Position numbers and translations under genes: made by a program. The notes beneath the pieces are model-generated. The model was not told the DNA's origin. It searched no databases and saw nothing but the letters and a program-made list of their open reading frames with translations. A DNA stretch of 64,000 bases, taken from the NCBI GenBank assembly GCA_964398185.1, contig CAYNML010000024.1, positions 6,790-70,789 of the forward strand, read 5' to 3'. This document shows positions 3,035-63,078 of this stretch, piece after piece. The stretch's first letter is position 1, and each line of letters begins with the position of its first letter. This DNA is from an uncultured Anaerolineae bacterium. Its GTDB lineage: Bacteria; Chloroflexota; Anaerolineae; Fen-1058.

Positions 3035-4054
3035 CTAAAATCGCGAAATCGCCCCTACCAACGCATCGATCATTTGCGGCGGCGTATCCGGGCTGACGCC
3101 TCCGCCTGCCGATAGGATCAACCCGCGCCCCCCGGTTTTCTCAATACACGATCGGGCCCAGCTGCTCACCTGATCCGGTGTGCCGCGCACCAGCACGTCG
3201 AGCGGCGGCACGTTGCCCATCAAGACGATGCCGGGCATCTGCGCCTGCACTTCGGCGATGTCGGTGGTGTGGCTGAAATTGAAAACGTCAAAGCCGAGAG
3301 ATGCCATCGGCTGCAATAGGTGCGGACAAGGCGTATCGTTGTGATAGACCTTGATCAGGCCGTCGAACGCGGCGAACAGGCGCGTTATCAACGGTCGCGC
3401 ATATTGCTCGAACAACTTCGGCGACAACATCCCCACGATGTCGTCCAGCACGAGTACACCTTCGGGCGCGCGCAGCACGTCGAGTTGGGCGCGCAGCCAG
3501 CGGATGATGGTGGTGGTCAACGTGTCGAGCAAACGCTGCGCGGCTTCCGGTTCTTTCTTCATGGCGATCAGCAAGTCGGTGATGCCCAGCAGCCAGCCTG
3601 CCACGGCGAACGGTCCGCGTGCGGCGACCATTTTGATCGACTCGCCTTCTGGCAGCAAGCGTTTCTCGGCGTCGAGATAGCGCTGCAAGACCAGCGGCAT
3701 CAGGCCGTGCTGCTGCGGATCGGGCGGCTCAATGTCGGCCAGCACTTTCAGCCCGCCGCGCACCGGCTCGATCGACGGCGGTTGATCGCGATGCCACATG
3801 ATGCGCGCGCCAAACGCCGATGGCTCCGCTGCCATGCCGTATTCGATCCAATAACCGGGAATCCAGGCCACTTCCGGAAAGCGCGCGTTCAAGCCCAGAT
3901 AGATACGCAGCCATTCATCTTCGCGCAAAAAGAAATCGAGCGTGTTGATGCCGGCATAGCCGGGCAGCCACGGGCTATCGACGATGAGCGCCACGGGGAT
4001 CCGATCGGCTTGTCCGCCCCGCGCGACGGTGGCAAAGCGTTCCCAGGGATTCAT
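3035..4054 (-). CDS. Uroporphyrinogen decarboxylase / MtaA-CmuA superfamily protein, divergent active site
   Basis: C-terminal LMGNVPPLDVLVRGTPDQV...ILSAGGGVSPDTP and central D(D)IVGMLSPKLFEQY patterns of the URO-D TIM-barrel family. Confidence 0.8.
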   Translation of the reverse strand: MNPWERFATVARGGQADRIPVALIVDSPWLPGYAGINTLDFFLREDEWLRIYLGLNARFPEVAWIPGYWIEYGMAAEPSAFGARIMWHRDQPPSIEPVRGGLKVLADIEPPDPQQHGLMPLVLQRYLDAEKRLLPEGESIKMVAARGPFAVAGWLLGITDLLIAMKKEPEAAQRLLDTLTTTIIRWLRAQLDVLRAPEGVLVLDDIVGMLSPKLFEQYARPLITRLFAAFDGLIKVYHNDTPCPHLLQPMASLGFDVFNFSHTTDIAEVQAQMPGIVLMGNVPPLDVLVRGTPDQVSSWARSCIEKTGGRGLILSAGGGVSPDTPPQMIDALVGAISRF

Positions 4055-5109
4055 GCGTGTGATCCGTTCGAGTTGTTCGCTGGAGCCGGGCCGGTCGATT
4101 CGCGCACAATGAGCGGGCTTTCCATCAAGGTGTAACCGTCTTCGGGCGGCGGCTGGCCCTTGATCATTTGCCGCAGGATGCGCATCGCCACACGGCCCAT
4201 GCGATACTTGGGCTGCGCGATGGTGGTCAACGGCGGATTGGTGTGCGCGGCCATCGAGATGTCGTCGATGCCGATGACCGAGATGTCTTCGGGCACGTGC
4301 AGGCGGTGCGTGCGAATGGCGTGCAGCGCACCCAGCGCCATGAGATCGTTGTAAGCCACCACGGCAGTCGGACGCTCAGCGGCCGGCAGCGCGAGCAGTG
4401 CGCTCATCGCCTGAAAGCCGCCATCGACACCAGGGAAACTCACCGGGCACAGTTCCGGCGGGAAGTGCAGACCTGCTTCCGACAACGCCCGCTCAACACC
4501 GCGCCGCCGGGCCAGCGATGCTTCCGATTGCGACGGGCCAGCCAGATACGCGATGCGCGTATGGTTCAAACTGAGCAAATGGCACGTGGCGCGATACGTG
4601 GCAATTTCAAAATCGACCATCAAACAGGCGACGTGGGGAAAGCGTACCGGGCGATTGAGCACCACCATCGGTATCTTCTGGTGGCTGATCGCCGCCGCCA
4701 GTTCCTCGGCCGCAATGCGCGATCCGCCGACGATGACGCCGCACACGGGCTGCGTCGCCAGCAGGCGAAAATATTGCTTCTCGCGCTGCAAGTCTTCCGC
4801 GGTGTCCAGCAACAGCGGCATGTACTCGTCGGCGCTTTCGTCCTGCACGCCGCGCACGATCTCGGCAAAGAACGGATTGAGAATATCGGGGATCAACAGG
4901 GCAATGGAACTGATCGGCTGGGCTTTCACCGAGCGGTGCGGCACGTGCCGGTAGCCCAGCTCTTCGGAAGCGCGCATGACTTGCTTACGCACATCTTCGC
5001 TGACAGGGGCGGTATTGTTCAGCACGCGCGAGACGGTGGAAGGAGAAACACCGGCTCGTCGTGCCACTTCAACGAGACTGGGGTGAGCCTGCTTGATGCT
5101 CATAGTCAC
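4051..5109 (-). CDS. LacI-family transcriptional regulator
   Basis: SLVEVARRAGVSPSTVSRVLN HTH; AYNDLMALGA and VPEDISVIGIDD...PPLTTI sugar-binding domain motifs. Confidence 0.95.
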   Translation of the reverse strand: MTMSIKQAHPSLVEVARRAGVSPSTVSRVLNNTAPVSEDVRKQVMRASEELGYRHVPHRSVKAQPISSIALLIPDILNPFFAEIVRGVQDESADEYMPLLLDTAEDLQREKQYFRLLATQPVCGVIVGGSRIAAEELAAAISHQKIPMVVLNRPVRFPHVACLMVDFEIATYRATCHLLSLNHTRIAYLAGPSQSEASLARRRGVERALSEAGLHFPPELCPVSFPGVDGGFQAMSALLALPAAERPTAVVAYNDLMALGALHAIRTHRLHVPEDISVIGIDDISMAAHTNPPLTTIAQPKYRMGRVAMRILRQMIKGQPPPEDGYTLMESPLIVRESTGPAPANNSNGSHA

Positions 5110-5205
5110 GTCTTTCTGGCGGTCTTACTGAAATTTGCGTAAGTTTTCATGAAACAGTATACTTACTTTCAGAAAAAAGTCAATAACTTTGTGATGGATG
5201 TCACT

Positions 5206-6222
5206 ATGAAGAGGTTACACTTCGGGATTGTAGGGGTAGGGAACATCGCGCCGCTCCATGCGCTGGCGATTCAGGCGCTGCCGGAAGCCGAGTTGGTGGC
5301 AGTGGCGACTCAGAATGCCGAGCGTGGGCAGGCGTTTGTGGAGAAATTCGGCGGCCAGTGGCATGCCGATTATGCTGAGCTGCTCCAACGGCCCGATGTG
5401 GATGTCGTGACGATCTGCACGCCGCACGATCTCCACGCCCCGATGACGATCGCCGCGGCGCAGGCAGGCAAGCACGTGCTGTGCGAGAAGCCCCTGGCGC
5501 GCACCACCGCCGAGTGTGAGGCGATGATCGCGGCCTGCGAACGGGCTGGGGTGACGCTGGGCGTGGTCTTTCAATCACGTTTCGAGCCACTGTCGCTGCA
5601 CCTCAAACGCTTGATTGATGAGGGAACATTGGGCCGCATCGTATGGAACAGCGCCAACACGATCTGGTATCGCAGTGACGACTACTATCGCAGCGGGCCG
5701 TGGCGCGGCACGTGGGAGCATGAAGGCGGCGGCGTGCTGATCAATCAAGCCATTCACGCCATCGATCTGCTGCTGTGGTTGACAGGGATGCCCGATCGGG
5801 TTACGGCACAAACGCGGACGCTAAATCATTCCATCGAAGTGGAAGACGGAGCAATCGCTACTTTAGAATATGCCGACAATCGGTTGGGCTTGATTCAAGC
5901 GACGACGGCAGCGTATCCCGGTTATGCCGAACGGCTGGAAGTGTACGGCACGCGCGGCAGCGCGATCTATCACAAGGGCGAAGGGCGGCTGGAATGGCAT
6001 CTGCTCGATCCGCGCGAGGATCACGTGCTGGAGGCCAACATCAGCAGCGGCGCGGCTAACCCCATGGACATTAGCACGGCGGGGCATGTCGCCGTGTTTC
6101 AAGATTTTGCAGAAGCGGTGCGCGAGGGACGCCGACCCGCGATCGATGGAACAGAAGGCCGCCGTAGTGTTGCGGTGGTGGAGGCGATCTATCGAGCGGC
6201 GCGCGCCAGAGATCAATCCTGA
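5206..6222 (+). CDS. Gfo/Idh/MocA family NAD(P)-dependent oxidoreductase
   Basis: GIVGVGNIA Rossmann motif, HVLCEKPLA, GGGVLINQAIHAID. Start moved from 5149 to the ATG at 5206, just before the Rossmann strand. Confidence 0.92.
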   Translation: MKRLHFGIVGVGNIAPLHALAIQALPEAELVAVATQNAERGQAFVEKFGGQWHADYAELLQRPDVDVVTICTPHDLHAPMTIAAAQAGKHVLCEKPLARTTAECEAMIAACERAGVTLGVVFQSRFEPLSLHLKRLIDEGTLGRIVWNSANTIWYRSDDYYRSGPWRGTWEHEGGGVLINQAIHAIDLLLWLTGMPDRVTAQTRTLNHSIEVEDGAIATLEYADNRLGLIQATTAAYPGYAERLEVYGTRGSAIYHKGEGRLEWHLLDPREDHVLEANISSGAANPMDISTAGHVAVFQDFAEAVREGRRPAIDGTEGRRSVAVVEAIYRAARARDQS

Positions 6223-6279: not shown

Positions 6280-9200
6280 GTGCTCAATCCTGTTCAGGCA
6301 GATTTGGTTGTGACGGACACTCCCTCTTCTCCGGCGCGGCAGCGCACCACCATTGGGTTCTTAACTGCCAACATCCATCTTGGATCGGGCCGCGCCCTGT
6401 GGCCCGGCGTGGCCGACGCCGCCGAGCAGCACGACTTGAACTACATCTGCTTCCCAGGCGGCGGGCTGCGCGTAAGCGAAGGGTTTGAAGCCCAGCGCAA
6501 CGTCATTTACGATCTGATCGATCCGCAGCGGCTCGACGGGTTGATCACGTGGTCGTCGGCCATCGGCGGGGCGCTCGCTCCCACCGAAGTCGCCGAGTTC
6601 CATCAGCGCTATCAGCCGCTGCCCATGATCAGTCTCGCGCAGATCGTCGAGGGTGTGCCCACTGTGGCGATCGATAGTTACACCGGAATGCGCGAAGCGG
6701 TGGTGCATTTGATCGAAGTGCACGGCTTCCGCAAACTGGCCTTCATGCGCGGCCCGGCCAATCACTTCTTTGCGCAAGAGCGCTATCGCGCTTACACCGA
6801 CGTTCTGAAAGAATATGGCATCCCCTTTGTGCCGGAGCTGGTGACGCAGCCGTTGACGTGGGGCGAGGGCACGGAGGCGGCGCTGCTGTTACTGGACGAA
6901 GCTCACCTGCGGCCCGGTATTGATTTTGAAGCAGTGGTGGCCGTGAGCGATCTGATGGCGTTGAGTGCGATGCGCGTCTTCCAGGCGCGCGGCATTCACA
7001 TCCCGCACGATGTGGCCTTTGTGGGCTTTAACGATTCGCTGGAAGGACGCCTCGTCACGCCGCCCTTGACTTCGGTGGTGATGCCGTTCTACGAACAGAG
7101 CAGGCGCGCCGTGGCCGAACTGCTGATGCGCTTGTCCGGCGCCCCCCTGCCCGATCAGGTCACGCTGCCCTCGCAGCTGATCGTGCGCCAGTCGTGCGGC
7201 TGCCCGTCAGACGCGGTGGTGCAGGCGGCGCTGGGATCCTTCACGCCGAGCGCCGCTAATTTCGCGCAGGCCAGCGCGCCGCTCAAGACGAGATTCATGG
7301 CCGGATTGGCGCAGCCCGATCAGGCGGCGCGCGCCGCGAAACTTTTCGACGCCTTACAGGCCGACTTACTCGCCGGGCCGCCGCAGCGTTTCCTCACGGA
7401 ACTCGCCGCCGTGCTGGAAGAGGCGGCACGGCATGGCACGGATGTGTCAGACTGGCAGGACGCGATCTCACTGCTGCGCCGCTGCGTGCTGCCGGCGTTG
7501 AATCCCGCGCAGCACGCTCGGGCTGAGGACCTCTTCGGGCAGGCGCGTGTTTTGATCGGGGAAGCGGCCCAGCGCACGCAGGCCTATCGCCAATTGCAGG
7601 CGGAGCGACAGGCCGACATGCTGCGCGACATTGGACAGGCGCTGATTACGGCGTTCAACGTCGAGAAGCTTGCCGATGTACTGGCCGAGCGTCTGCCCGC
7701 GTTGGGCATCGCCAGCGGCTATGTGGCGCTGTACGAGAACCCGGCGTTGTCGTTGGAGCGCGCGCGCCTGGTGTTGGCTTACACCGAGCAAGGGCGCGTG
7801 CTGCTGGAGCCGGGCGGGCGATCATTCACGGCGCGCGAATTGGCCCCGGCGGACGTGCTGCCCGCCGAGCGGCGGTACAGCTTCATGCTGGAACCACTGT
7901 ATTTCCGGGAAGAACAGATCGGCTTCGCCCTGTTCGAGATCGGCCCGCGCGACAGCGACATCTACGAAGTGCTGCGCGGCCACATCAGCAGCGCGCTCAA
8001 AGGCGCCTTGCTGTTTCAAGAAGCGCTGCAGGCGCGCCTCGTCGCCGAGAAAGCCGATCAGATCAAAACGCGCCTGTTGACCAATGTCAGCCACGAACTG
8101 CGCACGCCGCTGAACATCATTCTGGGCTATACGCGCAATGCGCTGCTGGCCTCGCAGCCCGACGGCTTGCTGCTGCCCCCCGCCGTGCTGAACGATCTGC
8201 GCCACATTCACAACAGCGCCGAGCACCAGCTGCGCGTCATCAACGACCTGCTCGATCTGTCGCGCGCGGAGATCGACGAGCTCGATCTCTATCTGGAACT
8301 GATCGATCCCCGCCCGCTGCTGGCAGAGGCCTTCCACAGTCTGGCCGATGTGGCCGATCCGGCGCGCGGGATTGCGTGGAAGTTGCAGCTGCCCGATCGG
8401 CTGCCGTGGCTCAACGCCGACGCCGTGCGGCTGCGGCAGACGCTGCTCAACCTGCTGAGCAACGCGCGCAAGTTCACCGCGCGCGGCTCCATCACGCTGG
8501 GCGCCGATGTTGCGCCGCCGTATCTGCACATCTGGGTGGCTGACACCGGCGTCGGCATTGCGAGCGATCAGCTGGACCACATCTTCGAGCCGTTCATCAC
8601 GGCCGAGCACGATCGGCAGGCGGGCGTCCCCCCTCTGGTGGGCGGCATTGGGCTGGGGTTAACCATCACGCGCCATCTGGTGATCCTGCACGGCGGCTCG
8701 ATCAGCGTGGAGAGCGAGCCAGGACGCGGCAGCACGTTCCACGTGTATCTGCCGCTGCCGCACTTGAACGATCAGGCCGCTCCCTCAGCCGCGACAGGGC
8801 ATCCCGTGTTGCTGTTGATCTCGAAAGCCGCGCAGCCCGCACCGGAGATTGTGAAGTTTGCGCGGCAGCAGCACCTGACGATCAAGCGTCTGCACACCGC
8901 CGATGACGTAGAAGCCGTGCTGGCCATCTGCCAGCCGCTGACGGTAGCCTGGGATCTGGTCGACGCCAATCCCAGCGATTGGAACATCGTGCGGCGGCTG
9001 CGCAATCATCCGCGCCTGTCACAGACACCCTTCCTGTTGTATGGCCAGGCGCCGTCGGCGGAAGCCGGCGAAGCGGCGTTGACGATCGGGTTGACGAGTT
9101 TCGTGGGCAAACCGGCGGCCGATCAATCACTGCTCAACGCGCTGCACGCGGCCAGCGCGATCCCGTCGTCTGGCCCGCTGCTGATCGTGGATGATGATCA

Positions 9201-9888
9201 GCAGGCGTGCGCGGCTTATCAAGCCCTGCTGGCGCGCCAGCTGCCGGCGTATGTGGTGCAGACGGCCAACGACGGCGCCAGCGCGCTGGAGATGATGGCG
9301 CATGAAGCGCCGAGCCTCGTGATCCTCGATCTGGTGATGCCGGGGCTGGGCGGGGCGGAGGTGCTCGATCGGATGCGCGCCGATCCGCGTCTGCGGCAAG
9401 TGCCGGTGATAATCCTCAGCAGCAAGCTGTTGACGCTGGACGATGTGAAGCGCATCGAACGACATGCGCGCGTGACGCTGCACAGCAAAGGGGTGCTGTC
9501 GGAAGAGGAAACCAGCGCGGCCCTGAACCGGGCGCTGTTCGGCGCAGAAGCACTGCCGCCGCACACCAGCGCGCTGGTGAAACGAGCCCTGGCGTATTTC
9601 CATCAAAACTATGCGCGGCCGCTGGCCCGCTGGGAAATCGCCGAAGCGGTGGGCGTCAGCGAAGACTATCTGTCGCGCGTGTTCAACCGCGAATTGGGCT
9701 TGTCGCCGTGGGATTATCTCACGCGCTATCGCATTCAACGCGCCAAAGACCTGCTGCACCGCACCAACGACAGCATCCGCGCGATCGCCCATCAGGTCGG
9801 CTTCAAGGATCAGGCGTATTTCAGCCGGGTCTTCCGCAAGCAGACCGGCTTGGCGCCGAATGAATTTCGAGGGACACCGGGAACGTAA
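6280..9888 (+). CDS. Soluble hybrid sensor-regulator: LacI-type sugar-binding domain + GAF-like + HisKA + HATPase + degenerate REC + REC + AraC HTH
   Basis: VAFVGFNDS..PPLTSV (LacI sensor); SHELRTPLN (His at 8092); N, G1, F and G2 boxes; IVDDD...LDLVMP REC (Asp at 9328); C-terminal EIAEAVGVSEDYLSRVF...IAHQVGFKDQAYFSRVFRK. No transmembrane helix visible. Confidence 0.9.
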   Translation: MLNPVQADLVVTDTPSSPARQRTTIGFLTANIHLGSGRALWPGVADAAEQHDLNYICFPGGGLRVSEGFEAQRNVIYDLIDPQRLDGLITWSSAIGGALAPTEVAEFHQRYQPLPMISLAQIVEGVPTVAIDSYTGMREAVVHLIEVHGFRKLAFMRGPANHFFAQERYRAYTDVLKEYGIPFVPELVTQPLTWGEGTEAALLLLDEAHLRPGIDFEAVVAVSDLMALSAMRVFQARGIHIPHDVAFVGFNDSLEGRLVTPPLTSVVMPFYEQSRRAVAELLMRLSGAPLPDQVTLPSQLIVRQSCGCPSDAVVQAALGSFTPSAANFAQASAPLKTRFMAGLAQPDQAARAAKLFDALQADLLAGPPQRFLTELAAVLEEAARHGTDVSDWQDAISLLRRCVLPALNPAQHARAEDLFGQARVLIGEAAQRTQAYRQLQAERQADMLRDIGQALITAFNVEKLADVLAERLPALGIASGYVALYENPALSLERARLVLAYTEQGRVLLEPGGRSFTARELAPADVLPAERRYSFMLEPLYFREEQIGFALFEIGPRDSDIYEVLRGHISSALKGALLFQEALQARLVAEKADQIKTRLLTNVSHELRTPLNIILGYTRNALLASQPDGLLLPPAVLNDLRHIHNSAEHQLRVINDLLDLSRAEIDELDLYLELIDPRPLLAEAFHSLADVADPARGIAWKLQLPDRLPWLNADAVRLRQTLLNLLSNARKFTARGSITLGADVAPPYLHIWVADTGVGIASDQLDHIFEPFITAEHDRQAGVPPLVGGIGLGLTITRHLVILHGGSISVESEPGRGSTFHVYLPLPHLNDQAAPSAATGHPVLLLISKAAQPAPEIVKFARQQHLTIKRLHTADDVEAVLAICQPLTVAWDLVDANPSDWNIVRRLRNHPRLSQTPFLLYGQAPSAEAGEAALTIGLTSFVGKPAADQSLLNALHAASAIPSSGPLLIVDDDQQACAAYQALLARQLPAYVVQTANDGASALEMMAHEAPSLVILDLVMPGLGGAEVLDRMRADPRLRQVPVIILSSKLLTLDDVKRIERHARVTLHSKGVLSEEETSAALNRALFGAEALPPHTSALVKRALAYFHQNYARPLARWEIAEAVGVSEDYLSRVFNRELGLSPWDYLTRYRIQRAKDLLHRTNDSIRAIAHQVGFKDQAYFSRVFRKQTGLAPNEFRGTPGT

Positions 9889-9920: not shown

Positions 9921-9961
9921 AAACACGGAGCGCAGCGTGCTGCGCTCCGTGTTTATATTTT
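9921..9961 (+). terminator. Intrinsic terminator after the hybrid regulator
   Basis: Perfect 16-bp stem AAACACGGAGCGCAGC / GCTGCGCTCCGTGTTT followed by ATATTTT. Confidence 0.7.
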
Positions 9962-10192
9962 GCGCGGAGCGATCGCCCGCGGAGGCGCCGCCGGCCAGTC
10001 GGACGTGGCGAAAGCGCCCCGGTGCGCGGGTATCTATGACGGTTTTCTCCTCAGGCAGCGCGCCAAAGTCCATCCTCCCCTCGGTACAATGAAAACAATA
10101 CTCAGACTTGGAGTGGCGCGAAGCCGGAGTTTTTGAGAAGATGGGGGCGGCGGCTGGCCCGGCCAGTCGATCCCATTTAAGGTAAGCCAATC

Positions 10193-11182
10193 ATGGAAAC
10201 CATCGGCAACACTCTTCCTCCCCCCGTCAGCACCAGTCCGGCAGCCACTTTGGCGCCGGCCGCGTGGCGTCTGCGGCTGCGCGGTCTGCGCCGCGCCATC
10301 TGGAAGCACCGCACCATTTACGTGTTGATGGCCTTGCCGCTGTTGTACTTCCTTGTGTTCAAGTACTGGCCGTTGTGGAATACGCAAATCGCATTTAAAG
10401 ACTTTAAGCCCTTGCTGGGCGTCGAGGCCAGCCCCTTCGTCGGCTTCAAGCATTTCGAGGCCTTCTTCAAGTCATTCTACTTCAGCCAATTGTTGATCAA
10501 CACGCTGATCTTCAGCCTGGCCAAGTTGATCCTGGGTATGCCGCTGGCCATCATTCTGGCGCTGGCGATCTACGAGAGTTCGTTCCGCTTCCTGCGCAAG
10601 ATCACGCAGACCATGGCCTACCTGCCGCACTTCCTGTCGTGGGTGATTATCTACGGCGTGCTGCTGGCGCTGTTGTCGCCGGGCAGCGGCCTGGTCAACG
10701 AGATCATCAAGGCGGCCGGCAACAACCCGATCGCGTTTCTCACCTCGCCGCAATATTTCCGCTGGGTCGTCATCGGATCGGACATCTGGAAAGAGACGGG
10801 CTGGAGCACCATCATTTATCTGGCCGCGCTCCTGTCGATCGATCCGGTGCTGTTCGAAGCCGCCGCGGTGGACGGCGCCTCGCGCCTGCAGCGCATTCGG
10901 CACATCTCGCTGCCGGGCATCGCCAGTGTCATCGTGGTGGTGACGCTGCTGCGGCTGGGCAATATTCTGGACGCGGGCTTCGGCCAGATCTTTGTGTTGT
11001 ACTCGCTGCCGGTGTACAGCGTCGGCGACATCATCGATACGTGGGTCTACCGCCAGGGCATTCTGGAATTCCAGTTTAGTCTGGCCACGGCCGTCGGCCT
11101 GTTCAAGGGGTTGATCGGGTTGGGGTTGATCTTCTTCTCCAACAAGATCGCCAGGCGGTTGGCCGGCACAGGGCTGTACTAA
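10193..11182 (+). CDS. Carbohydrate ABC permease, LplB/YteP-like
   Basis: YLPHFLSWV, SDIWKETGWSTIIYLAAL..ID..LFEAAAVDGASR (EAA loop), DIIDTWVYR. Confidence 0.92.
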   Translation: METIGNTLPPPVSTSPAATLAPAAWRLRLRGLRRAIWKHRTIYVLMALPLLYFLVFKYWPLWNTQIAFKDFKPLLGVEASPFVGFKHFEAFFKSFYFSQLLINTLIFSLAKLILGMPLAIILALAIYESSFRFLRKITQTMAYLPHFLSWVIIYGVLLALLSPGSGLVNEIIKAAGNNPIAFLTSPQYFRWVVIGSDIWKETGWSTIIYLAALLSIDPVLFEAAAVDGASRLQRIRHISLPGIASVIVVVTLLRLGNILDAGFGQIFVLYSLPVYSVGDIIDTWVYRQGILEFQFSLATAVGLFKGLIGLGLIFFSNKIARRLAGTGLY

Positions 11183-11195
11183 CCGGGGGCGCGTC

Positions 11196-12074
11196 ATGAC
11201 TCGCTTTAGATCGTGGGACGAAATCGGCTTTCAGTTTCTGGTCAACGCCTTCCTGTTGGGTGTGCTGCTCGTGGTGATCATCCCGTTGTGGCGGGTGATC
11301 ATGATGTCGGTCACACCCATTGGCAACATGGACAACGGCACGTTCGGCATGTGGATCAATCCGGCCCAGTGGTCATTTGAGGCTTTCTCGCAGCTGCTGA
11401 CGCATCCCAACTTTCTGCGCTCGCTGGGCAATAGCGTGTTCATCACTGTTGTTGGAACGGCTTTCAACCTGCTGATGACCATTCCGCTGGCTTACGCGTT
11501 GTCGGTCCCCACGCTGCCGGGGCGCCGGCTGTTCATCGGCTTCATCCTGTTCACCTTCCTGTTCAATCCGGGTCTGGTGCCGACCTATCTGGTCGTGACC
11601 AGGCTGGGCCTGCGCGACAGCTTTGCCGCCGTGATTCTGCCCACGGCGATCAGTGTTTACAACACGCTGGTCATGAAGAGTTTCTTTGAGGGGCTGCCGG
11701 AGGATTTGAAAGAAGCGGCGCGCATCGACGGCGCGAGCGAATTGCAGGTGCTGGCGCAGGTCATCCTGCCGCTGTCGCGGCCCATCATCCTGACCATCGG
11801 CATGTTCTACGCCGTCTCACACTGGAACGAATTCTTTGCGCCCATTCTGTATCTGGATAACGCCGACCTGATGCCGCTGCCGGTGCTGCTGCGCAACATC
11901 CTGCTGTCGGCAGGCGTCAACGAATATATTGAGTACGACGCCTTCAGTTCGGCGCCTGTGGAAGCGATCAAAGCCGCCGGTGTCATGCTGACCATGCTGC
12001 CGATGATCTTCCTGTACCCGTGGATTCAGCGCTACTTCACCAAGGGTACGCTGAGCGGGGCTGTTAAGCAATAA
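11196..12074 (+). CDS. Carbohydrate ABC permease, LplC/YtcP-like
   Basis: FNPGLVPTYLVV..LGL, EDLKEAARIDGASE, YPWIQRYFTKGTLSGAVK. Confidence 0.92.
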   Translation: MTRFRSWDEIGFQFLVNAFLLGVLLVVIIPLWRVIMMSVTPIGNMDNGTFGMWINPAQWSFEAFSQLLTHPNFLRSLGNSVFITVVGTAFNLLMTIPLAYALSVPTLPGRRLFIGFILFTFLFNPGLVPTYLVVTRLGLRDSFAAVILPTAISVYNTLVMKSFFEGLPEDLKEAARIDGASELQVLAQVILPLSRPIILTIGMFYAVSHWNEFFAPILYLDNADLMPLPVLLRNILLSAGVNEYIEYDAFSSAPVEAIKAAGVMLTMLPMIFLYPWIQRYFTKGTLSGAVKQ

Positions 12075-12193
12075 CCGTGTTGCTTCTCTGTCACCACAGC
12101 GCGAGGAGGTGGAGCACGCCGGACAGACTTAACCCCATACGCCAGGTAATCGATTTCGTCTCTGATCCAACAACCTTTCTCTGGAGGAGTAAG

Positions 12194-13885
12194 ATGACCA
12201 AGCAGCTGTACAAACTCACGTTGTTCGTTGTGTTGTTGTCCCTGTTGCTGGCCGCCTGCCAACCGGCCGCCGCTCCGGCGCCGGCGCAGCCCACGGCGGC
12301 GGCGACCAAGGAAGTTGCGCCCCCCACGGCTGAGCCGGTGAAGCCCACCGAACCACCCGCGGCGCCGCCGCCCACCGAACCGCCCGCGCCGGCAGAGCCT
12401 GTTGATCTGGAAATCTGGGTCGGCGCGGCCGTCAGCGAAGCCGGGCCGCCGCCCGATGACTGGGTGGTGTATGACATCGTGCGCGACAAGCTGGGCATTA
12501 ACCTGAAGGTCGTGCTGCTGCCCACCGCGCAAAGCGATGCCGACGCCAAGATCAACGCCGCCGGCGCAGCCAATTCGCTGCCCGATCTGGTGCAGGTTAA
12601 CCGCGAGCCGTGGTACCGTCTGGTGCAGAATGGCCTGGTGGCGCCCGTCGACGACATGCTGCCCCTGATGCCAAACCGCACCAAGGTTCTTTACACTGAC
12701 GAAATCCGCAACAAGCTGGTGACGCTGGACGGCAAGATGTACGGCCTGCCCCAGCCCGGCGCCCTGCCGCGCACCGACGCGCTGGTCATCCGCAAGGACT
12801 GGCTGGACAAGCTGGGTCTGGAAATGCCCAAGACGCTGGAAGACTTCATGGCGGTCGCCAAAGCCTTCACCGAGCAAGACCCGGACGGCAACGGCAAGCA
12901 GGATACCTATGGTCTGTGCGCCTACATGGAGTCTGAAGGCGCTGGCGCCCTGTCCGGTCTGGGCAAACGCTTTGAATGGGTCTTCGGCGCGTACGGCATG
13001 AATGGCGGCTGGAATTTATCCAGCGCGGATAACTTTGCCATGAACGTGCGCAATCCCAACTTCATGAAAGCGTTGGAGTACCTCAAGTCCTTGAACGATG
13101 CCGGCGTGATCGATCCGGACTGGCCGACCCTGAAGAAGGACGAGTACCGCGCTCGCTGGAAGCAAGGCAAGTGCGGCATCATGAACGAGAACTTTGCCGC
13201 GCTCTCAACCAAGGCGAACTACGCCGACTTCGACAAGAACTTCCCTGACGGCGAGTGGGTCGTGCTGCCGCCGCCAACCGGCCCCGAAGGCAAGAGCTCG
13301 GTGGGCGTTGACATGCAGAACGCCCGCATCTACGCCGTGTCGCAGAAGGCTGTCGATGAGGGCAAGCAAGAAGCCATCGCCAGACTGTTGGAGTGGATGT
13401 CCAGCGACGAAGGCTACTATCTGTTAGGCTTCGGGCAGGAAGGCATCAATTACAAGAAGGACGACCAGGGCTTTGTGACCACCAAGGGCATCGAGCCGCC
13501 CGAGAACGCCTACTCGCACAAGTCGCAGCAGCCGTTGACTCAGCTGCGCAATATGGTGTTCAACAACAACGAGATCGAACTGAAGGCCCGCTACGTCGAC
13601 TACAAGACTCAGAACGGTCGCACCATGAGCCCGCTGAAGTTTCTGGCTGAGTATCGCGCACTGCCCTGGATGGAAGGCACTGGCACAGCCATCATCAACC
13701 CGCCACCCGGCGGCGCCGACTTCACCCGCTTCTACAACGAGAACCTGGTGAAGTTCGTGCTCGGCCAGCTGCCGTTGAACGAACAGACCTGGGCTGAGTT
13801 CATCGCCGGGCTGGACGGCCTGGGCGCCAAAGAGTACGAAGCGCAGGCCAAGGAAACCCTGCAAAACAGCGGTTTCCTGCCGTAA
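12194..13885 (+). CDS. Extracellular solute-binding lipoprotein, LplA/YtcQ-like (oligogalacturonide/rhamnogalacturonide candidate)
   Basis: GGAGG RBS then ATG at 12194; lipobox LLAAC; Pro-rich linker; IRKDWLDKLGLEMPKTLEDF and DPDGNGKQDTYG motifs. Confidence 0.9.
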   Translation: MTKQLYKLTLFVVLLSLLLAACQPAAAPAPAQPTAAATKEVAPPTAEPVKPTEPPAAPPPTEPPAPAEPVDLEIWVGAAVSEAGPPPDDWVVYDIVRDKLGINLKVVLLPTAQSDADAKINAAGAANSLPDLVQVNREPWYRLVQNGLVAPVDDMLPLMPNRTKVLYTDEIRNKLVTLDGKMYGLPQPGALPRTDALVIRKDWLDKLGLEMPKTLEDFMAVAKAFTEQDPDGNGKQDTYGLCAYMESEGAGALSGLGKRFEWVFGAYGMNGGWNLSSADNFAMNVRNPNFMKALEYLKSLNDAGVIDPDWPTLKKDEYRARWKQGKCGIMNENFAALSTKANYADFDKNFPDGEWVVLPPPTGPEGKSSVGVDMQNARIYAVSQKAVDEGKQEAIARLLEWMSSDEGYYLLGFGQEGINYKKDDQGFVTTKGIEPPENAYSHKSQQPLTQLRNMVFNNNEIELKARYVDYKTQNGRTMSPLKFLAEYRALPWMEGTGTAIINPPPGGADFTRFYNENLVKFVLGQLPLNEQTWAEFIAGLDGLGAKEYEAQAKETLQNSGFLP

Positions 13886-13911
13886 GTCTGAAAGCACCAG
13901 ACAGCGCAACC

Positions 13912-13943
13912 AGTATCGGGCGGCCCCTCAGCCGCCCGATACT
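13912..13943 (+). terminator. Stem-loop (terminator or mRNA stabiliser) after the SBP gene
   Basis: Perfect 13-bp stem AGTATCGGGCGGC / GCCGCCCGATACT with a 6-nt loop; no U-tract. Confidence 0.6.
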
Positions 13944-13970
13944 CTAACCATAGCGCACAGGGCAGCTGAC

Positions 13971-14501
13971 GTGGAATCTCGCCCGATAATCTCAGAACTC
14001 AAGATTGCCTATCTCGGCGGCGGCAGCCGCGAGTGGGCGCGCCAGCTGATGATCGATCTGGCGCTGTGCCCCGAGCTCGGCGGACACGTGGCGCTCTATG
14101 ACATCGATCGAGAAGCAGCCGCTCTCAACGAGCAGTTGGGCAACTGGCTGCAAGAGCAGCCAGGGGTAGTGTCGCGCTGGCGGTATGAAGTCGCGCCCGT
14201 GCTGGAAGAGGCTGTGCGCGGCCTGCGGTCAGCCACCCTCTATGCAGAATTTGCACGCGTCCTCGCGGCGATCTGTCCGCGAGCGTGGATCATCAACTAC
14301 ACTAATCCGCTGACAATTTGCCCGCGCACGCTGACGCGCGTGGCGCCGGCGCTCAAAGTCTTCGGCTGCTGCCATGAAGTGTACGCCACGCAGCGGATGC
14401 TGGCTGGCGTCGTCAAGCAATCTCTCGACGTCACCCCGACCCGCGCCCAGATCAAAGTAAACGTGCTGGGCCTCAATCATTTTACGTGGAATGTCAACTA
14501 A
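13971..14501 (+). pseudogene. GH4 alpha-galacturonidase (LplD-like) remnant with internal deletion and C-terminal truncation
   Basis: KIAYLGGGS, LYDID, INYTNP, GCCHEV and GLNHFTW motifs of GH4 are present. The ADFV...GDT.GPGG segment is missing, and the ORF stops at 176 aa. Confidence 0.85.
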
Positions 14502-14516
14502 TCTTTCGAGGACAGC

Positions 14517-20860: not shown

Positions 20861-23800
20861 ATGAACCGCTCGGCTTTGCGCATCGGCTCGGTGTTGGTGT
20901 TGGCTGTCTCCATGTTGGCCGTGTTGCTCGTGTTCCTGCCGGCGTTGGCCGTGCAGCTCCCGTTGGTCAGTGACGACTTTGAGAGCGGCGCGGGACTGTG
21001 GACCGTGCAGGCCGGCAACTGGTCGATCACAACTACCCCAGAGGGCGCGGCGTACAGCGTCATCTACAGCGGATCGCCCAGCACAGCGCGCGCCATTATC
21101 ACGGAGACGACGGTGCCGGGATCGACGGCGTGGACGGATTATCGGATTGAATCGCGCATCAAAGTCATCACCGGCACCGGCGGCTATTACGCCATGCTCA
21201 TGGCGCGCTACAAGGACGCCCGGAACTACTATTTCATGACCCTGCGCGGCGATAATGGCCGCGTGGAGATCAGGCGTTACTACAACAACTCCTCCAGCGG
21301 ACGCACCCTCACGTCGACCAATGCCAACATCGCAGTGGGAACCTGGTACACCGCGGCCTTTGAGTTGCAGGGCAACACGCTGCGCGCCTACATCGATGGA
21401 AATCTGGTGGCGACGGCCATCGATACCAACACCGTTGAATCTTTCTATACCGGCACGGCGGGACTCGCCACCGCAACCGGCTCGGCGCTGTTCGACGATG
21501 TGCTGATCACCGATCTGCGCGCCTACACCCTCACCGTGAGCAGCGCCGGCAGCGGCGCCGGATCGATCAGCAGCGATCCGGCGGGCATTAGCTGCGGCGC
21601 TACCTGCGCGGCAAGCTTCGATGCCAACAACGTGATCACGCTCACGGCGACACCCGACGCCGGATCGAGCTTTGCCGGTTGGCTGGGCGCATGTGTGGGC
21701 ACAGGTCCGTGTGTCGTCACGCTGGATGCAGCGAAGGCAGTGGTCGGCGTCTTCTCGCTGGACACGCAGCCGATGCTGGTGGTCAACAAGGGCAGCAACG
21801 GGTATGGCCTGGTCACGAGCGACCCGGCGGGCATCGAGTGCGGCATGACGTGCACGGCCAGCTTTGCGCACAGCACGGTAGTTACGCTGACCGCTGCGCC
21901 CGAAAGCGGATCGCTCTTCACCGGGTGGAGCGGTGAAGGCTGCACCGGCACTAGTCAATGCGTTGTTACCATGGATGCCGCGAAGAATGTGACGGCGAGT
22001 TTCACACTGCAAATCTTTGCGTTGAATGTCAGCCAGGCGGGCAACGGCACAGGCACCGTGACCAGCAATCCGGCCGGCATCAACTGCGGCGCGACATGTT
22101 CGGCCAACTACAACGCCGGTACAGTGGTGACGCTCACGGCGTCACCCGACACAGGTTCGACGTTCACGGGGTGGTCGGGGAGTTGCAGTGGATCGGGCAC
22201 GTGCGCTGTCACGATCAATGCGACGACGGGCGTCACCGCGACCTTCGATCTGATCACCTACACCTTGACAGCCCATCGGGCGGGCAACGGCCTAGGATCA
22301 ATCAACAGTACCCCGAGCGGCATCGATAACTGCACAGATGCTACATGCGCGGCGATCTTCAACTACGGCACAGTCGTCACGTTGGCGGCGACGGCGAATA
22401 CCGGCTCGCTCTTCGCCGGCTGGAGCGGCGAAGGGTGCAGCGGCACAGACCCGTGCGCGGTGACCATGACCGCGGCCAGGACGGTGACGGCGACGATGAG
22501 CCTGCTGACCTACACGTTGAGCGTCACCACCGCCGGCCATGGCACAGGCTCGGTCACCAGCGTTCCTGCCGGTATCGACTGCGGCGCGACATGCTCGGCT
22601 ATCATCGATCACGGCACGGTCGTCACGTTGACAGCTGCGGCTGATGGCGGCTCGGCGTTTGCGGGCTGGCAGGGCGCAAATTGCCTGGGGACAGGCGCTT
22701 GTGTCGTAACGCTGGATGCGGCTAAGTCTGTGACCGCGCTCTTCTCGTCGAATAGCAATCCGCTGCTAGTGGTTTATAAAGGCGGCACTGGATTGGGCAC
22801 TATCACCAGCGAACCGGTTGGCATCGATTGCGGCATGACGTGCACGGCCAGCTTCGCGCAGAATACCGTCGTGACGTTGACGGCCACGCCGGATGCCAGT
22901 TCACTCTTCGCGGGCTGGTGTGGCGCGTGCTTAGGCGCCGGGCCGTGCGTCCTCACCATGGACGAGACCCGGAACACGCGCGCGGTCTTTATCGACACGT
23001 CGGCCATTCTGGCCCTGGACGATTTCGAAAGCGGTGCAGGGCAGTGGACGGTTGAATCGGGTGCGTGGACGATCAGCATGGCTGATTCGCAAGTCTACAG
23101 CACCAGCCAGACGGTGGGCGTTAGTTTTGCGCGTTCGGTGATTTCGAATGCGCACACCTCCGGCTGGACCGACTATGTTTTCCGCGCCAGAGTGAAACCG
23201 CTCGTGGGCCAGTATGCCATGTTAATGGTGCGCTATCAGAATGCCAACAACCACTACTTCATGGACTTGCGCACCGACAACGGCAAGATCGAAATCAAGA
23301 AAATGGTGAACGGTTCATCGGGCAGCGCGCTCAAGAGCGTCAGTGCCGGCATCACCGCCGGGACGTGGTACACCGCCGAACTCGAAGTGGTGGGCGCGCA
23401 GCTGCGCGGTTATCTCAACGGCGTGCTGGTGATCACAGCCACCGATCCGCTGGTGAATCCGCCCTTTATGACGGGCGGCGTCGGCGTGGGCACGCTCAAC
23501 AACAGCGCCGAGTTTGACGATGTGCAAGTCGCCTCACTGGCTCCGATCTACACGCTGACCGTCCAGCGCGCCGGCAGCGGTTCCGGCGCAGTGAGCAGCA
23601 CACCGTTCGGGTTGGATTGCGATCTCAACTGCGTCGCGGGCTTCAACGGCGGCGCGGTGGTGGCGCTCGTCGCTGCGCCTGATCCCGGATCGACATTTGC
23701 CGGCTGGCTGGGCGGCGGGTGCAGCGGCACAGGATCGTGCACCATCACGCTGAATGCCAACAAGTCGGTCACCGCCGTGTTTTCGTCGGTCAGTGAGCCG

Positions 23801-25519
23801 ATGCTGGTGGTCAACAAGGATGGCAATGGCGCCGGCGTCGTGACGAGTGTGCCCGCCGGTATCGATTGCGGTGCGATGTGTGCTGCCGGTTTTACGCAAA
23901 ACACGATCGTCACCCTCACCGCAACGGCCACCAACTACTCCACGTTCATGGGCTGGAGCGGTGAAGGTTGCAGCGGCACAGGATCGTGCACAGTGACCAT
24001 GGATGCGGCTAAGTCTGTCACCGCCACCTTTACGTACTTCACCTACCCGCTCACGGTGTCCACTGCCGGCAGTGGACAGGGCACGGTGACCAGCAATCCG
24101 GCAGGGATCCACTGCGGTGTAACGTGCACGGTGAGCTTCGGCGGCGTGGTCACGCTTACCGCTGCGCCTGATCCGGCGACACACTTCGACGGTTGGAGCG
24201 GCGCCTGCAGCGGCGCGGGCCGGTGTGTCATCACAATGGAGGCCGCCAGGAGCGTGACGGCGACCTTCACGCAGTACAACACGTATCTGCCGCTCATTCG
24301 CAACTACATCGCGCCGGTCACGGTCGCGCCGGTGTACGTCGCGCCGAATGGCCTGGATACCAATCCTGGCACCATCACGCAGCCGTTCAAGACATTGAAC
24401 AAAGCGATCGCGCAGACGACGCCCGGCCAAACGATCTTCCTGCGCGGCGGCGTTTACTCGCACACCGACACGATCACGTTGAGTCAGAGCGCCAACAATG
24501 TAAACATGTACAAGATCTGGGCTTATGCCGCTGAAAAGCCGGCGCTGGATTTCGCGGGCGCACCGTTTGGGGCGCGTGGCTTCAACATCACGGGCAACTT
24601 CTGGCATCTGAAAGGTCTGGAGATCCGGTACGCGCCGGACAACGCCATCAAGATCGAGGGCAGCTACAACATCGTCGAAAACTGTGTGCTGCACCACAAT
24701 CAGGACACGGGCCTGCAAATCGGCCTGGCGACAGAATCGGTCAATCCCGGCGGAACGCTGGCCGCTTACAATCAGGTGATCAACTGCGACTCGTATCGCA
24801 ACTATGACGCGGCCACCAACGGTTCCAATGCCGATGGCTTTGCGGCCAAACTGCACCCCGGCCCCGGCAATCTCTTCAAGAGCAGCCGGGCCTGGGAGAA
24901 CGCCGACGACGGTTGGGACTTGTTTCTGACAGACTACCCGGTGATGATCGAAAATTCGTGGACGTGGCACAACGGCGATCCGGCGATCTTCAATCACGTC
25001 GGCCCGTGGGGCGGCAACGGCAACGGCTTCAAGGTGGGCGGCGGCAACAATCACGCGCCGCACATCTTGAAGAACTGTCTCGCCTTCGATCACAAATACG
25101 GTCCCGGTTCAGGCACCAAGGGCTTCGATCAGAATCACAATCTGAGCGGCATTACGATCTACAATTCGGTGGCGTGGGACAATGCGATCAATTATTCGTT
25201 CTACGAGCAGCCCACCGACGGCACGCATCATGTGTTGAAGAACAACGTCGGCTTCGCGTGGACCAGCAGCAACGTCAATCTGTCGGCGGATACCATTCAG
25301 GCGGCCAACAGCTGGACTCTCACGGTCACGACCAACATCAGCGATTTTCTTAGTCTGGATGCGCTGCTGGCCAGCGCACCGCGCCAGCCCGATGGCGCTC
25401 TGCCGCTCAACGACTTTGCGCGGTTGACGAATGACAGCGATCTGATCGACGTGGGGGTGGATGTGGGCCTCCCCTTCCTGGGACTGGCGCCGGACTTGGG
25501 CGCGTTTGAAAAGCGATAA
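20861..25519 (+). CDS. Secreted modular PL9 pectate lyase: signal peptide, 2 ConA-like (DUF1080/CBM66-like) domains, 9 Cys-containing InlB-B-like repeats, C-terminal PL9 beta-helix
   Basis: PL9 (PelL-type) motifs NADGFAAK, GNLF...AWENADDGWDLF, GNGNGFKVGG and terminal APDLGAFE; repeated GTVTSxPAGIxCGxTC...FxGWxGxC modules. Confidence 0.88.
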   Translation: MNRSALRIGSVLVLAVSMLAVLLVFLPALAVQLPLVSDDFESGAGLWTVQAGNWSITTTPEGAAYSVIYSGSPSTARAIITETTVPGSTAWTDYRIESRIKVITGTGGYYAMLMARYKDARNYYFMTLRGDNGRVEIRRYYNNSSSGRTLTSTNANIAVGTWYTAAFELQGNTLRAYIDGNLVATAIDTNTVESFYTGTAGLATATGSALFDDVLITDLRAYTLTVSSAGSGAGSISSDPAGISCGATCAASFDANNVITLTATPDAGSSFAGWLGACVGTGPCVVTLDAAKAVVGVFSLDTQPMLVVNKGSNGYGLVTSDPAGIECGMTCTASFAHSTVVTLTAAPESGSLFTGWSGEGCTGTSQCVVTMDAAKNVTASFTLQIFALNVSQAGNGTGTVTSNPAGINCGATCSANYNAGTVVTLTASPDTGSTFTGWSGSCSGSGTCAVTINATTGVTATFDLITYTLTAHRAGNGLGSINSTPSGIDNCTDATCAAIFNYGTVVTLAATANTGSLFAGWSGEGCSGTDPCAVTMTAARTVTATMSLLTYTLSVTTAGHGTGSVTSVPAGIDCGATCSAIIDHGTVVTLTAAADGGSAFAGWQGANCLGTGACVVTLDAAKSVTALFSSNSNPLLVVYKGGTGLGTITSEPVGIDCGMTCTASFAQNTVVTLTATPDASSLFAGWCGACLGAGPCVLTMDETRNTRAVFIDTSAILALDDFESGAGQWTVESGAWTISMADSQVYSTSQTVGVSFARSVISNAHTSGWTDYVFRARVKPLVGQYAMLMVRYQNANNHYFMDLRTDNGKIEIKKMVNGSSGSALKSVSAGITAGTWYTAELEVVGAQLRGYLNGVLVITATDPLVNPPFMTGGVGVGTLNNSAEFDDVQVASLAPIYTLTVQRAGSGSGAVSSTPFGLDCDLNCVAGFNGGAVVALVAAPDPGSTFAGWLGGGCSGTGSCTITLNANKSVTAVFSSVSEPMLVVNKDGNGAGVVTSVPAGIDCGAMCAAGFTQNTIVTLTATATNYSTFMGWSGEGCSGTGSCTVTMDAAKSVTATFTYFTYPLTVSTAGSGQGTVTSNPAGIHCGVTCTVSFGGVVTLTAAPDPATHFDGWSGACSGAGRCVITMEAARSVTATFTQYNTYLPLIRNYIAPVTVAPVYVAPNGLDTNPGTITQPFKTLNKAIAQTTPGQTIFLRGGVYSHTDTITLSQSANNVNMYKIWAYAAEKPALDFAGAPFGARGFNITGNFWHLKGLEIRYAPDNAIKIEGSYNIVENCVLHHNQDTGLQIGLATESVNPGGTLAAYNQVINCDSYRNYDAATNGSNADGFAAKLHPGPGNLFKSSRAWENADDGWDLFLTDYPVMIENSWTWHNGDPAIFNHVGPWGGNGNGFKVGGGNNHAPHILKNCLAFDHKYGPGSGTKGFDQNHNLSGITIYNSVAWDNAINYSFYEQPTDGTHHVLKNNVGFAWTSSNVNLSADTIQAANSWTLTVTTNISDFLSLDALLASAPRQPDGALPLNDFARLTNDSDLIDVGVDVGLPFLGLAPDLGAFEKR

Positions 25520-63062: not shown

Positions 63063-63078
63063 ACCGTTCTCCTCGGTA

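Follow-up and report, generated by a model that had tools for sequence, protein, structure and literature searches.

A membrane-free LacI-type sensor kinase with an AraC output as the probable activator of a pectin operon in an uncultured Anaerolineae bacterium

Is a pectin operon in the Chloroflexota switched on from inside the cell, by one protein that carries its own sugar sensor, kinase and DNA-binding domain? This question is raised by a 64,000-nucleotide stretch of DNA (the window; GenBank assembly GCA_964398185.1, contig CAYNML010000024.1, positions 6,790 to 70,789 of the forward strand) from an uncultured Anaerolineae bacterium, in which the gene for a 1202-residue hybrid regulator lies upstream of predicted genes for the uptake and breakdown of pectin oligosaccharides. 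How glycan use is controlled is understood best for Bacteroides, whose hybrid two-component systems (HTCS) sense in the periplasm, and for Firmicutes, with extracellular sensing. Degraders of the phylum Chloroflexota abound in freshwater, sludge and sediments, and to our knowledge almost nothing is known about how they regulate genes of this kind. An earlier reading of the sequence (the original prediction) had proposed that the regulator senses an imported pectin product in the cytoplasm and controls the operon downstream. This proposal gained comparative support from synteny down to 41% identity, a Streptomyces homologue at 33%, a conserved promoter element and the residues of the ligand pocket. 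We consider it probable that the protein is an inducer-responsive, phosphorelay-based activator of the adjacent pectin-oligosaccharide operon.

Architecture of the regulator

The regulator gene is an open reading frame with a GTG start, and the list of reading frames and its translation match exactly the single chain that had been predicted. From the N terminus the chain consists of a LacI-type core, a helical bundle, a GAF-like domain, a HisKA/HATPase kinase, a pseudo-receiver (REC1), a receiver (REC2) and an AraC-type domain. Pfam and alignment placed HisKA, HATPase_c, REC and the AraC-type helix-turn-helix (HTH) all on this one polypeptide. The LacI-type ligand domain claimed at the outset was matched by Peripla_BP_3/Peripla_BP_1 at aa 40-306 (E 1e-27), the kinase by HisKA at 596-664 and HATPase_c at 714-827, and the output domain by HTH_18/HTH_AraC at 1120-1197. 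The domain and transmembrane check named in the original prediction was thus run with the claimed domains found and with no hydrophobic segment in the protein.

A type-I periplasmic-binding-protein effector core was recognized at the N terminus by Pfam, by PDB sequence search and by Foldseek. In the PDB sequence search aa 19-313 matched LacI-family cores, namely ancestral LacI (9nt3, E 6.6e-33), CelR (5ysz, 4e-21) and CcpA (about 3e-19). The NCBIfam LacI profile aligned aa 20-311 to its positions 61-336 of 358, and because the match begins at position 61 the LacI DNA-binding HTH is absent from the regulator. Pfam likewise found no PF00356 (LacI HTH) match in it, and does find one in the neighboring protein encoded at 4051-5109. 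For aa 314-590 sequence search returned no PDB relative.

We modeled aa 20-1202 with AlphaFold2 (AF2) on 62 orthologues, and aa 325-600 separately. The mean pLDDT of the long model was 80.7, and its top Foldseek matches in the PDB were ShkA (E 2e-17) and LacI-family cores (TM score 0.8-0.87). The shorter model (pLDDT 93.9) consists of a five-helix bundle followed by an alpha/beta domain, and in the model the last helix of the alpha/beta domain continues unbroken into the dimerization helix of the kinase. The top Foldseek PDB matches of aa 461-560 were all GAF domains, the best being 3ci6 (E 6e-4), and they were weak (E 6e-4 to 1e-2, TM score about 0.5-0.6). Pfam gave no GAF family match in the regulator even at E <= 1. 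The "GAF-like region" of the original prediction is a fair but weakly backed description at the level of the fold, and does not extend to a Pfam profile.

Membrane topology was assessed by Kyte-Doolittle hydropathy over 19-residue stretches (cut-off 1.6). By this measure no stretch of the regulator exceeded 1.6, as expected from the earlier claim that it has no transmembrane helix. The maximum was 1.51, within the G2 box of the ATPase, against 2.3-2.6 for the downstream permeases. Because the reading frame opens just five codons before the GTG start, no signal peptide or transmembrane segment is hidden 5' of the start. The regulator is probably a soluble, dimeric, single-chain two-component system.

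Conservation of the active sites was judged in alignments of 30 and 62 orthologues. H605 (8092-8094) lies within SHELRTP, in which E606 and T609 form a phosphatase motif, and H605, E606, R608, T609 and P610 are invariant. In the ATPase domain N724, N728, D755, G757, G759, F769, F772, G789, G791 and G793 are invariant. The best Response_reg match in Pfam covers 968-1050, with a second, weak stretch besides. REC2 has the full five-residue receiver set (D971/D972, D1017, S1047 and K1070), again invariant, and is the "intact" receiver of the original prediction. The "degenerate" one corresponds to REC1. AF2 gives aa 842-955 a receiver-like beta/alpha topology, and REC1 keeps D892 and K944, but S848/K849 stand where the acidic pair would be and beta4 is not followed by a Thr/Ser. 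[quoted passage not shown] The catalytic residues of the kinase and of REC2 are intact and invariant; the chemistry itself we infer from them.

At least 770 relatives came up in a protein search, and the top 120 among them, at 54-87% identity, are without exception full-length proteins that share the Pfam domains of the regulator. These 120 come from metagenome genomes of Thermoflexales, Anaerolineae and Roseiflexaceae, and carry generic names only. The architecture is widespread in Chloroflexota, with hundreds of orthologues, and is not unusual within this lineage. In literature searches aimed at it we found no description of a LacI-sensor/kinase/two-receiver/AraC architecture that would mark it as already characterized. 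Family fragments in the source annotations are called "YesN/AraC family two-component response regulator". A search with REC2-AraC only returned almost solely fragments of the same family on short contigs and was uninformative about outgroups or about convergence with HTCS. A scan of genome contigs with the regulator alignment keyed on generic kinase motifs (NVSHE[LM]RTP, NDLLDLSRA) and gave mostly unrelated kinases from many phyla, with only loci L006-L008 relevant. Split kinase and response-regulator reading frames occur in L008, L138 and L139. We considered these as natural unfused systems and rejected the idea, the splits being probably assembly errors. The junction in L008 is restored by a single frameshift in a linker, the neighboring genes of L138 are fragmented too, which suggests error-prone assembly, and L139 is from the same sample.

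The pectin locus and its promoter element

The neighborhoods of seven full-length homologues were examined. Six of them (86, 71, 60, 55, 42 and 41% identical) adjoin two permeases, a binding protein and GH88, usually with GH28 and kdg/kdu/uxa genes, and the regulator and the operon are arranged both co-directionally and divergently among these six. The seventh (55%) adjoins GH88 and a GH28 fragment, without permeases. Outside the Chloroflexota, a homologue in Streptomyces harbinensis (Actinomycetota; 33%) follows a PL1 pectate lyase gene. The whole kinase-receiver-receiver-AraC subfamily looks pectin-linked in such comparisons. For one paralogue (L008, 42% identical) the surroundings are a fucosidase/GH127/GH63-like locus.

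In the DNA between regulator and operon we found a pair of boxes, ACGGTTTTCTCC-N10-CGCCAAAGTCCA, which have CG-N7-TCCA in common. Across five loci with regulators 55-100% identical, this element is the one conserved block that stands out from otherwise diverged intergenic DNA. The operon promoter has no good -35, and the proximal box covers the -35 region. A search allowing three mismatches found no second site in the 64-kb window (chance expectation 0.02), and in a position weight matrix (PWM) scan of the window the element scored 37, with -7.9 for the next best. Tandem binding of AraC-family proteins at activator-dependent promoters has such a layout (AraC, RhaS, XylS). The element is predicted to be an AraC-type activator site in a class-II, AraC/XylS-like arrangement.

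We also scanned a metagenome collection for exact matches to the 19 specified bases of the element. Of the 52 matches, 38 are in the correct orientation upstream, by about 130-430 nt, of genes homologous to permease 1 (34 sites) or to GH88/GH28 (four sites: L094, L095, L113, L133). The regulator is on the same contig at 32 of these 38 linked sites. Two further matches have only the regulator upstream. The remaining 12 have no such neighbor and behave like chance matches; most are without the extra conserved positions and the -10, and one (L124) has a -10-like box. From 36 distinct sites we derived the consensus AGGACGGTTTTgTCCA-N8-CGcCAAAaTCCA-N12-cTAnnAT. When twelve homologue loci were scanned with the PWM, the top match fell in the intergenic DNA between regulator and operon at eight of the nine pectin-linked ones. 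The Streptomyces locus has CGCAATAGTCCA-N9-CGTCATCGTCCA upstream of its pectate lyase gene, with the same CG-N7-TCCA direct repeat. The L008 paralogue locus has no element in the PWM scan, which is expected if its regulator has a different DNA specificity.

These data bear on two variants of the proposal, namely that the ligand switches the protein off, or that a different factor binds the element and the regulator acts elsewhere; we regard either as very unlikely. The sign of control is unreadable from sequence, and the E606/T609 phosphatase motif of HisKA permits bifunctionality. Candidates for another factor are the LacI-HTH regulator nearby (4051-5109) and, in L140, a nearby IclR gene. By contrast, a missing -35 overlapped by the proximal box is typical of activator-dependent promoters, the element tracks the regulator gene over 32 metagenome loci in both orientations, and half-sites 21 bp apart do not fit a LacI-type palindromic operator.

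The features of the locus are collected in Table 1. By their predicted products the genes downstream of the regulator are a pectin-oligosaccharide uptake and catabolism locus. The neighbors are ABC (ATP-binding cassette) permeases, a solute-binding protein, cytoplasmic glycoside hydrolases and kdg genes, and not a SusC/SusD locus. The hairpin proper of the terminator-like element spans 9921-9954 and is partly conserved in L001.

Table 1. Coordinates in the window of the regulator, its predicted domains and the neighboring features
Feature	Position	Strand	Basis
Regulator gene: cytoplasmic hybrid sensor kinase/response regulator/AraC activator, 1202 aa	6280..9888	+	ORF list, Pfam, NCBIfam, identical Pfam set in 120 full-length homologues
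LacI/GalR-type effector-binding core, aa 20-312, lacking the LacI HTH; putative ligand site	6337..7215	+	Pfam, PDB sequence search, Foldseek
RxSCGC motif, aa 303-308, junction of LacI core and helical region	7186..7203	+	Conservation
Bundle of five helices, aa about 326-457, with relatives in neither Pfam nor PDB	7255..7650	+	AF2
Divergent GAF-like alpha/beta domain, aa about 461-560	7660..7959	+	AF2, Foldseek
HisKA dimerization/phospho-acceptor domain	8065..8271	+	Pfam, invariant residues
HATPase_c catalytic domain; N, G1, F and G2 boxes intact	8419..8760	+	Pfam, alignment
Pseudo-receiver REC1, aa 842-955	8803..9144	+	AF2 topology, alignment
Receiver REC2, aa 966-1088; D1017 (9328-9330) predicted phospho-acceptor	9175..9543	+	Pfam, alignment
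AraC/XylS-type double-HTH DNA-binding domain, aa 1094-1198	9559..9873	+	Pfam, PDB 12aw
Intrinsic-terminator-like hairpin, 15-bp stem, with T-rich tail	9921..9964	+	Terminator scan, sequence
Predicted regulator site, two 12-13 bp boxes, 21-bp period	10039..10072	+	Conservation, scans
-10 hexamer TACAAT, 12 nt 3' of proximal box	10085..10090	+	cTAnnAT at fixed distance, 36 sites
ABC permease, BPD_transp_1	10193-11182	+	Pfam, synteny
ABC permease, BPD_transp_1	11196-12074	+	Pfam, synteny
SBP_bac_8 binding protein	12077-13885	+	Pfam, synteny
Truncated GH4 remnant	13971-14501	+	Pfam
GH88-family unsaturated uronyl hydrolase	14517-15662	+	Pfam
GH28 polygalacturonase	15659-17170	+	Pfam
PfkB kinase, KDG (2-keto-3-deoxygluconate) pathway	17155-18198	+	Pfam
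KDPG (2-keto-3-deoxy-6-phosphogluconate) aldolase	18280-18954	+	Pfam
KduI	19099-19917	+	Pfam
KduD-like SDR (short-chain dehydrogenase/reductase)	20003-20767	+	Pfam
1552-aa Pel9A-like lyase, nine Flg_new_2 repeats	20861..25519	+	Pfam

Several genes of the locus showed features of their own. The reading frame of the binding protein is listed from a GTG at 12077 (602 aa), and a lipoprotein-like N terminus, MTKQLYKLTLF..., begins at about 12194. The true start is probably 12194, to judge from the resulting length of about 563 aa compared with 537-562 aa in orthologues. The GH4 remnant is a partial N-terminal domain of 176 aa; L002 and L004 have a full GH4 of 431-460 aa, L003 has a fragment only, and in L001 the gene is absent. 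In the source lineage GH4 seems to be in decay. The 1552-aa protein has InlB B-repeat-like repeats (Flg_new_2), Laminin_G/3-keto-disaccharide-hydrolase-like lectin domains and a Pel9A-like beta-helix, and is probably a large secreted pectate lyase. The PWM scan of the window found no regulator site of its own for this gene, which lies on the same strand as the operon and is possibly in its transcription unit.

Upstream, the genes for a classical LacI repressor with an HTH (4051-5109, reverse strand) and for a GFO/IDH/MocA oxidoreductase (5149-6222) point away from each other, and the latter stops 57 nt 5' of the regulator. Regulator and oxidoreductase may share a transcript, with this repressor in control of the regulator. 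A GFO/IDH/MocA gene is also contained in the pectin operon of L141. In the 71% locus (L002), GmrSD (type IV restriction), DUF4160 and two small reading frames lie between the regulator and the operon at 13756-16521, and the promoter element remains with the operon despite the insertion. In the leader, from the predicted -10 box to the start of the permease gene, a block (GGAGTGGCGCGAAGCCGGAGTTTTTGAGAAGATG, at 10110-10150) recurs in the 86% and 71% loci and is missing from those further away in identity; it could act as a leader element or just reflect recent common ancestry. Two dips in G+C were seen in the window, 0.50 at 62001-64000 and 0.56 at 50001-52000, compared with a mean of about 0.61-0.62.

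Ligand pocket and sensor module

To describe the pocket we defined orthogroup-specific positions as those conserved at >=95% in 62 pectin-linked orthologues and at <40% in 137 module proteins with other outputs. Sixteen of the 18 such positions are in the LacI-type domain, and R443 and A585 alone are in the middle region. We numbered them provisionally on E. coli LacI by a BLASTP alignment at 24% identity. On this alignment S223, N251 and Q273 correspond to the inducer-contact residues N246, D274 and L296 of LacI, and H33/G35 fall in the contact loop at 72-79. R168, which is conserved family-wide, corresponds to LacI R197, and F270, which is conserved in the orthologues, to LacI F293. Position 251 is Asp in 104 of the 137 members with other outputs and an invariant Asn in the pectin group; one may speculate that Asn suits an anionic uronate ligand. 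These patterns suggest that ligand specificity is set in the LacI cleft and that the helical and GAF-like part serves as a conserved transducer.

The RxSCGC motif lies at the junction of these two parts. Across 149 cluster representatives of the sensor module with any output, conservation reaches at least 95% at each of R303, S305, C306, G307 and C308, and in the 62 orthologues S305, C306, G307 and C308 are invariant and R303 nearly so. The presence of two such cysteines in each chain of what is probably a dimer hints at a metal or redox site.

This raises the idea that the primary signal enters through the helical and GAF-like region or the CxC pair (a nucleotide, a metal or a redox change) and that the LacI domain is mainly a dimerization scaffold. 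The whole 570-residue module, including RxSCGC, is conserved whatever the output, and GAF domains commonly bind small molecules. However, the 16 orthogroup-specific invariants fall in the LacI-type domain at inducer-contact positions, and the GAF-like domain is minimal and diverged (TM score about 0.55). We therefore think it quite unlikely that the sugar cleft is a bystander, and prefer an imported pectin product as the signal.

The module is found in many other proteins. When aa 1-590 were compared with a library of representative proteins clustered at 50% identity, 2980 cluster representatives matched at E <= 1e-30. Among the top 150 of these, almost every one spans about aa 20-585 as one unit, in proteins of 444-1806 residues. 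The outputs are kinases alone, PAS/GAF arrays with kinases, GGDEF, STAS, MCP (methyl-accepting chemotaxis protein), a sigma-54 activator and a PAS-AraC one-component regulator. Examples with outputs other than that of the window protein are P0122, P0126, P0133, P0150, P0185, P0124 and P0154.

Within the AraC-output subfamily the phosphorelay is preserved to different degrees. The window protein, P0437, P0473 and P0485 retain every catalytic residue. P0172 and P0392 have kept the kinase and lost the acidic pair and Lys of REC2. P0451, P0454, P0463, P0467-P0469 and P0477 have no H-box His, ATP-binding boxes or acidic pair. These last homologues keep the pocket signature (IH.G, SD, FND) and the AraC domain, and nearly all keep RxSCGC. 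The loss at pectin loci is thus stepwise, with REC2 going first and then the H-box His and the ATP-binding boxes. The homologues without the H-box His and ATP-binding boxes include proteins of cultured Streptomyces and Actinophytocola. L140 and L142 are among the loci with phosphorelay-decayed homologues.

Such proteins allow another reading of the window protein, as a one-component allosteric regulator in which the ligand signal reaches the AraC domain by mechanical coupling across the kinase and receiver scaffold, with phosphotransfer dispensable or vestigial. Both grades of decay at pectin loci, the loss from REC2 and the loss of the whole catalytic apparatus behind an intact pocket signature and AraC domain, would fit this, and E. 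coli XylR is a precedent for a LacI-type domain that drives an AraC domain directly. On the other side, the catalytic residues of the kinase and REC2 are invariant or nearly so in the window protein and 61 orthologues of at least 55% identity. Because of this near-invariance, selection for catalysis is indicated in the orthologue clade. We judge a purely mechanical relay to be unlikely in the window protein and favor the phosphorelay there.

Tentatively, the N-terminal unit of about 570 residues could be an undescribed, self-contained cytoplasmic carbohydrate-sensing module that has been plugged into nearly all major outputs in Chloroflexota and some Actinomycetota, with relatives that grade from an active phosphorelay to a decayed sensor-to-DNA scaffold; the CxC pair might add a metal or redox input. 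We regard this as possible. If it is true, the pectin regulator is one member of a multi-output sensor-module family.

Proposed mechanism and comparison with known systems

The phosphorelay reading can be put as a sequence of steps. The ABC transporter would import a pectin product, perhaps an oligogalacturonide (saturated or unsaturated), perhaps a uronate or keto-deoxy sugar from further down the pathway, and this would bind in the cleft of the LacI-type domain. In the model, closure of the cleft could be transmitted through the RxSCGC junction, the helical bundle, the GAF-like domain and the long helix to the dimerization domain. H605 would then be autophosphorylated and its phosphoryl group passed to D1017 of REC2. 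REC1, which lacks canonical Mg2+ binding, is probably a scaffold or regulatory spacer, like Rec1 of ShkA. Phosphorylated REC2 would free or orient the AraC domains of the dimer to occupy the two boxes, 21 bp apart, at 10039-10072 over the missing -35. The bound domains would recruit RNA polymerase to the TACAAT promoter in the class-II manner of AraC/XylS proteins, and the genes for the transporter, GH88, GH28, KduI, KduD, KdgK and KdgA would be expressed. The terminator would keep the regulator transcript apart from that of the operon.

Several observations weigh against this scheme. The sequence occurs only in DNA metagenome runs (freshwater; faintly sludge, sediment and root). The direction of control, with the ligand turning the kinase on, is assumed. 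The promoter element can be read as an imperfect inverted repeat (T4/A4 tracts), to which another factor could bind. R168 and D224 are conserved family-wide, as in a generic sugar-type pocket and nothing narrower, and the LacI numbering is provisional and carries the limits of the alignment described above. Homologues with decayed phosphorelays are still at pectin loci, and because they persist there signaling without phosphotransfer is possible in this scaffold.

The regulator resembles several known systems in part. The YesM/YesN systems of Firmicutes pair a REC-AraC regulator with LplABC-type sugar ABC transporters, and the AraC domain of YesN, for which a structure exists (3lsg), is detectably related to that of the regulator. 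YesM kinases, by contrast, sit in the membrane, detect extracellular signals and are proteins distinct from their regulators. E. coli XylR (PDB 4fe4/4fe7) is also a cytoplasmic sugar sensor of the periplasmic-binding-protein fold with an AraC domain, and activates a sugar ABC/catabolic operon; its AraC domain is detectably related to that of the regulator (E about 1e-6). XylR joins sensor and AraC domain directly, whereas the regulator interposes about 780 residues (the bundle, the GAF-like domain, the kinase and two receivers). With LacI/GalR repressors such as LacI, CcpA and CelR the regulator shares the effector fold in its N-terminal 290 residues (E 6.6e-33, TM score 0.8-0.87) and the Arg and aromatic contact residues. 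Unlike them, it has no N-terminal HTH, acts in our proposal through a phosphorelay and an AraC output and not by direct operator binding, and has RxSCGC after the core.

The best multidomain structural match in Foldseek was ShkA of Caulobacter (6qrj, E 2e-17, 523 aligned columns). ShkA is a soluble kinase with dimerization and phosphotransfer (DHp), catalytic (CA), pseudo-receiver and receiver domains (PMC6969517). The regulator has this order DHp-CA-pseudoreceiver-receiver and, like ShkA, appears soluble. ShkA, unlike the regulator, has no sugar sensor and no DNA-binding domain and is activated by cyclic di-GMP.

The likeness to the HTCS of Bacteroides (BT1754, BT4663, BT4124) is that HisKA, HATPase, REC and AraC lie in one chain with a glycan locus alongside; the best solved relative of REC2-AraC, 12aw, itself bears the name "hybrid two-component system protein". 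The original prediction described HTCS as controlling polysaccharide loci through kinase, receiver and AraC domains, which is sound, and as using a periplasmic beta-propeller sensor, which is incomplete: BT1754 senses monomeric fructose via a periplasmic domain that is not a beta-propeller (PMC3404733). According to a 2024 review, HTCS sense periplasmically or extracellularly (PMC10766802), and in Bacteroides HTCS phosphorylation of REC relieves inhibition between REC and the DNA-binding domain (PMC11253607). HTCS sit in the inner membrane, sense with a periplasmic domain and work alongside SusC/D loci, whereas the regulator is membrane-free, with a cytoplasmic LacI-type and helical/GAF-like sensor and an ABC importer, and has an extra pseudo-receiver. 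Independent ("convergent") assembly relative to the HTCS of Bacteroidetes is plausible.

If our reading is correct, this regulator would represent a third solution to the control of glycan use, in which the logic of kinase, receiver and AraC domain is wholly intracellular behind an ABC importer. With a soluble sensor and a predicted operator and regulon, it would offer a test system for how a LacI-type cleft drives a histidine kinase. The multi-output module and the natural versions with decayed phosphorelays may also bear on the evolution of signaling domains and on soluble sugar biosensors.

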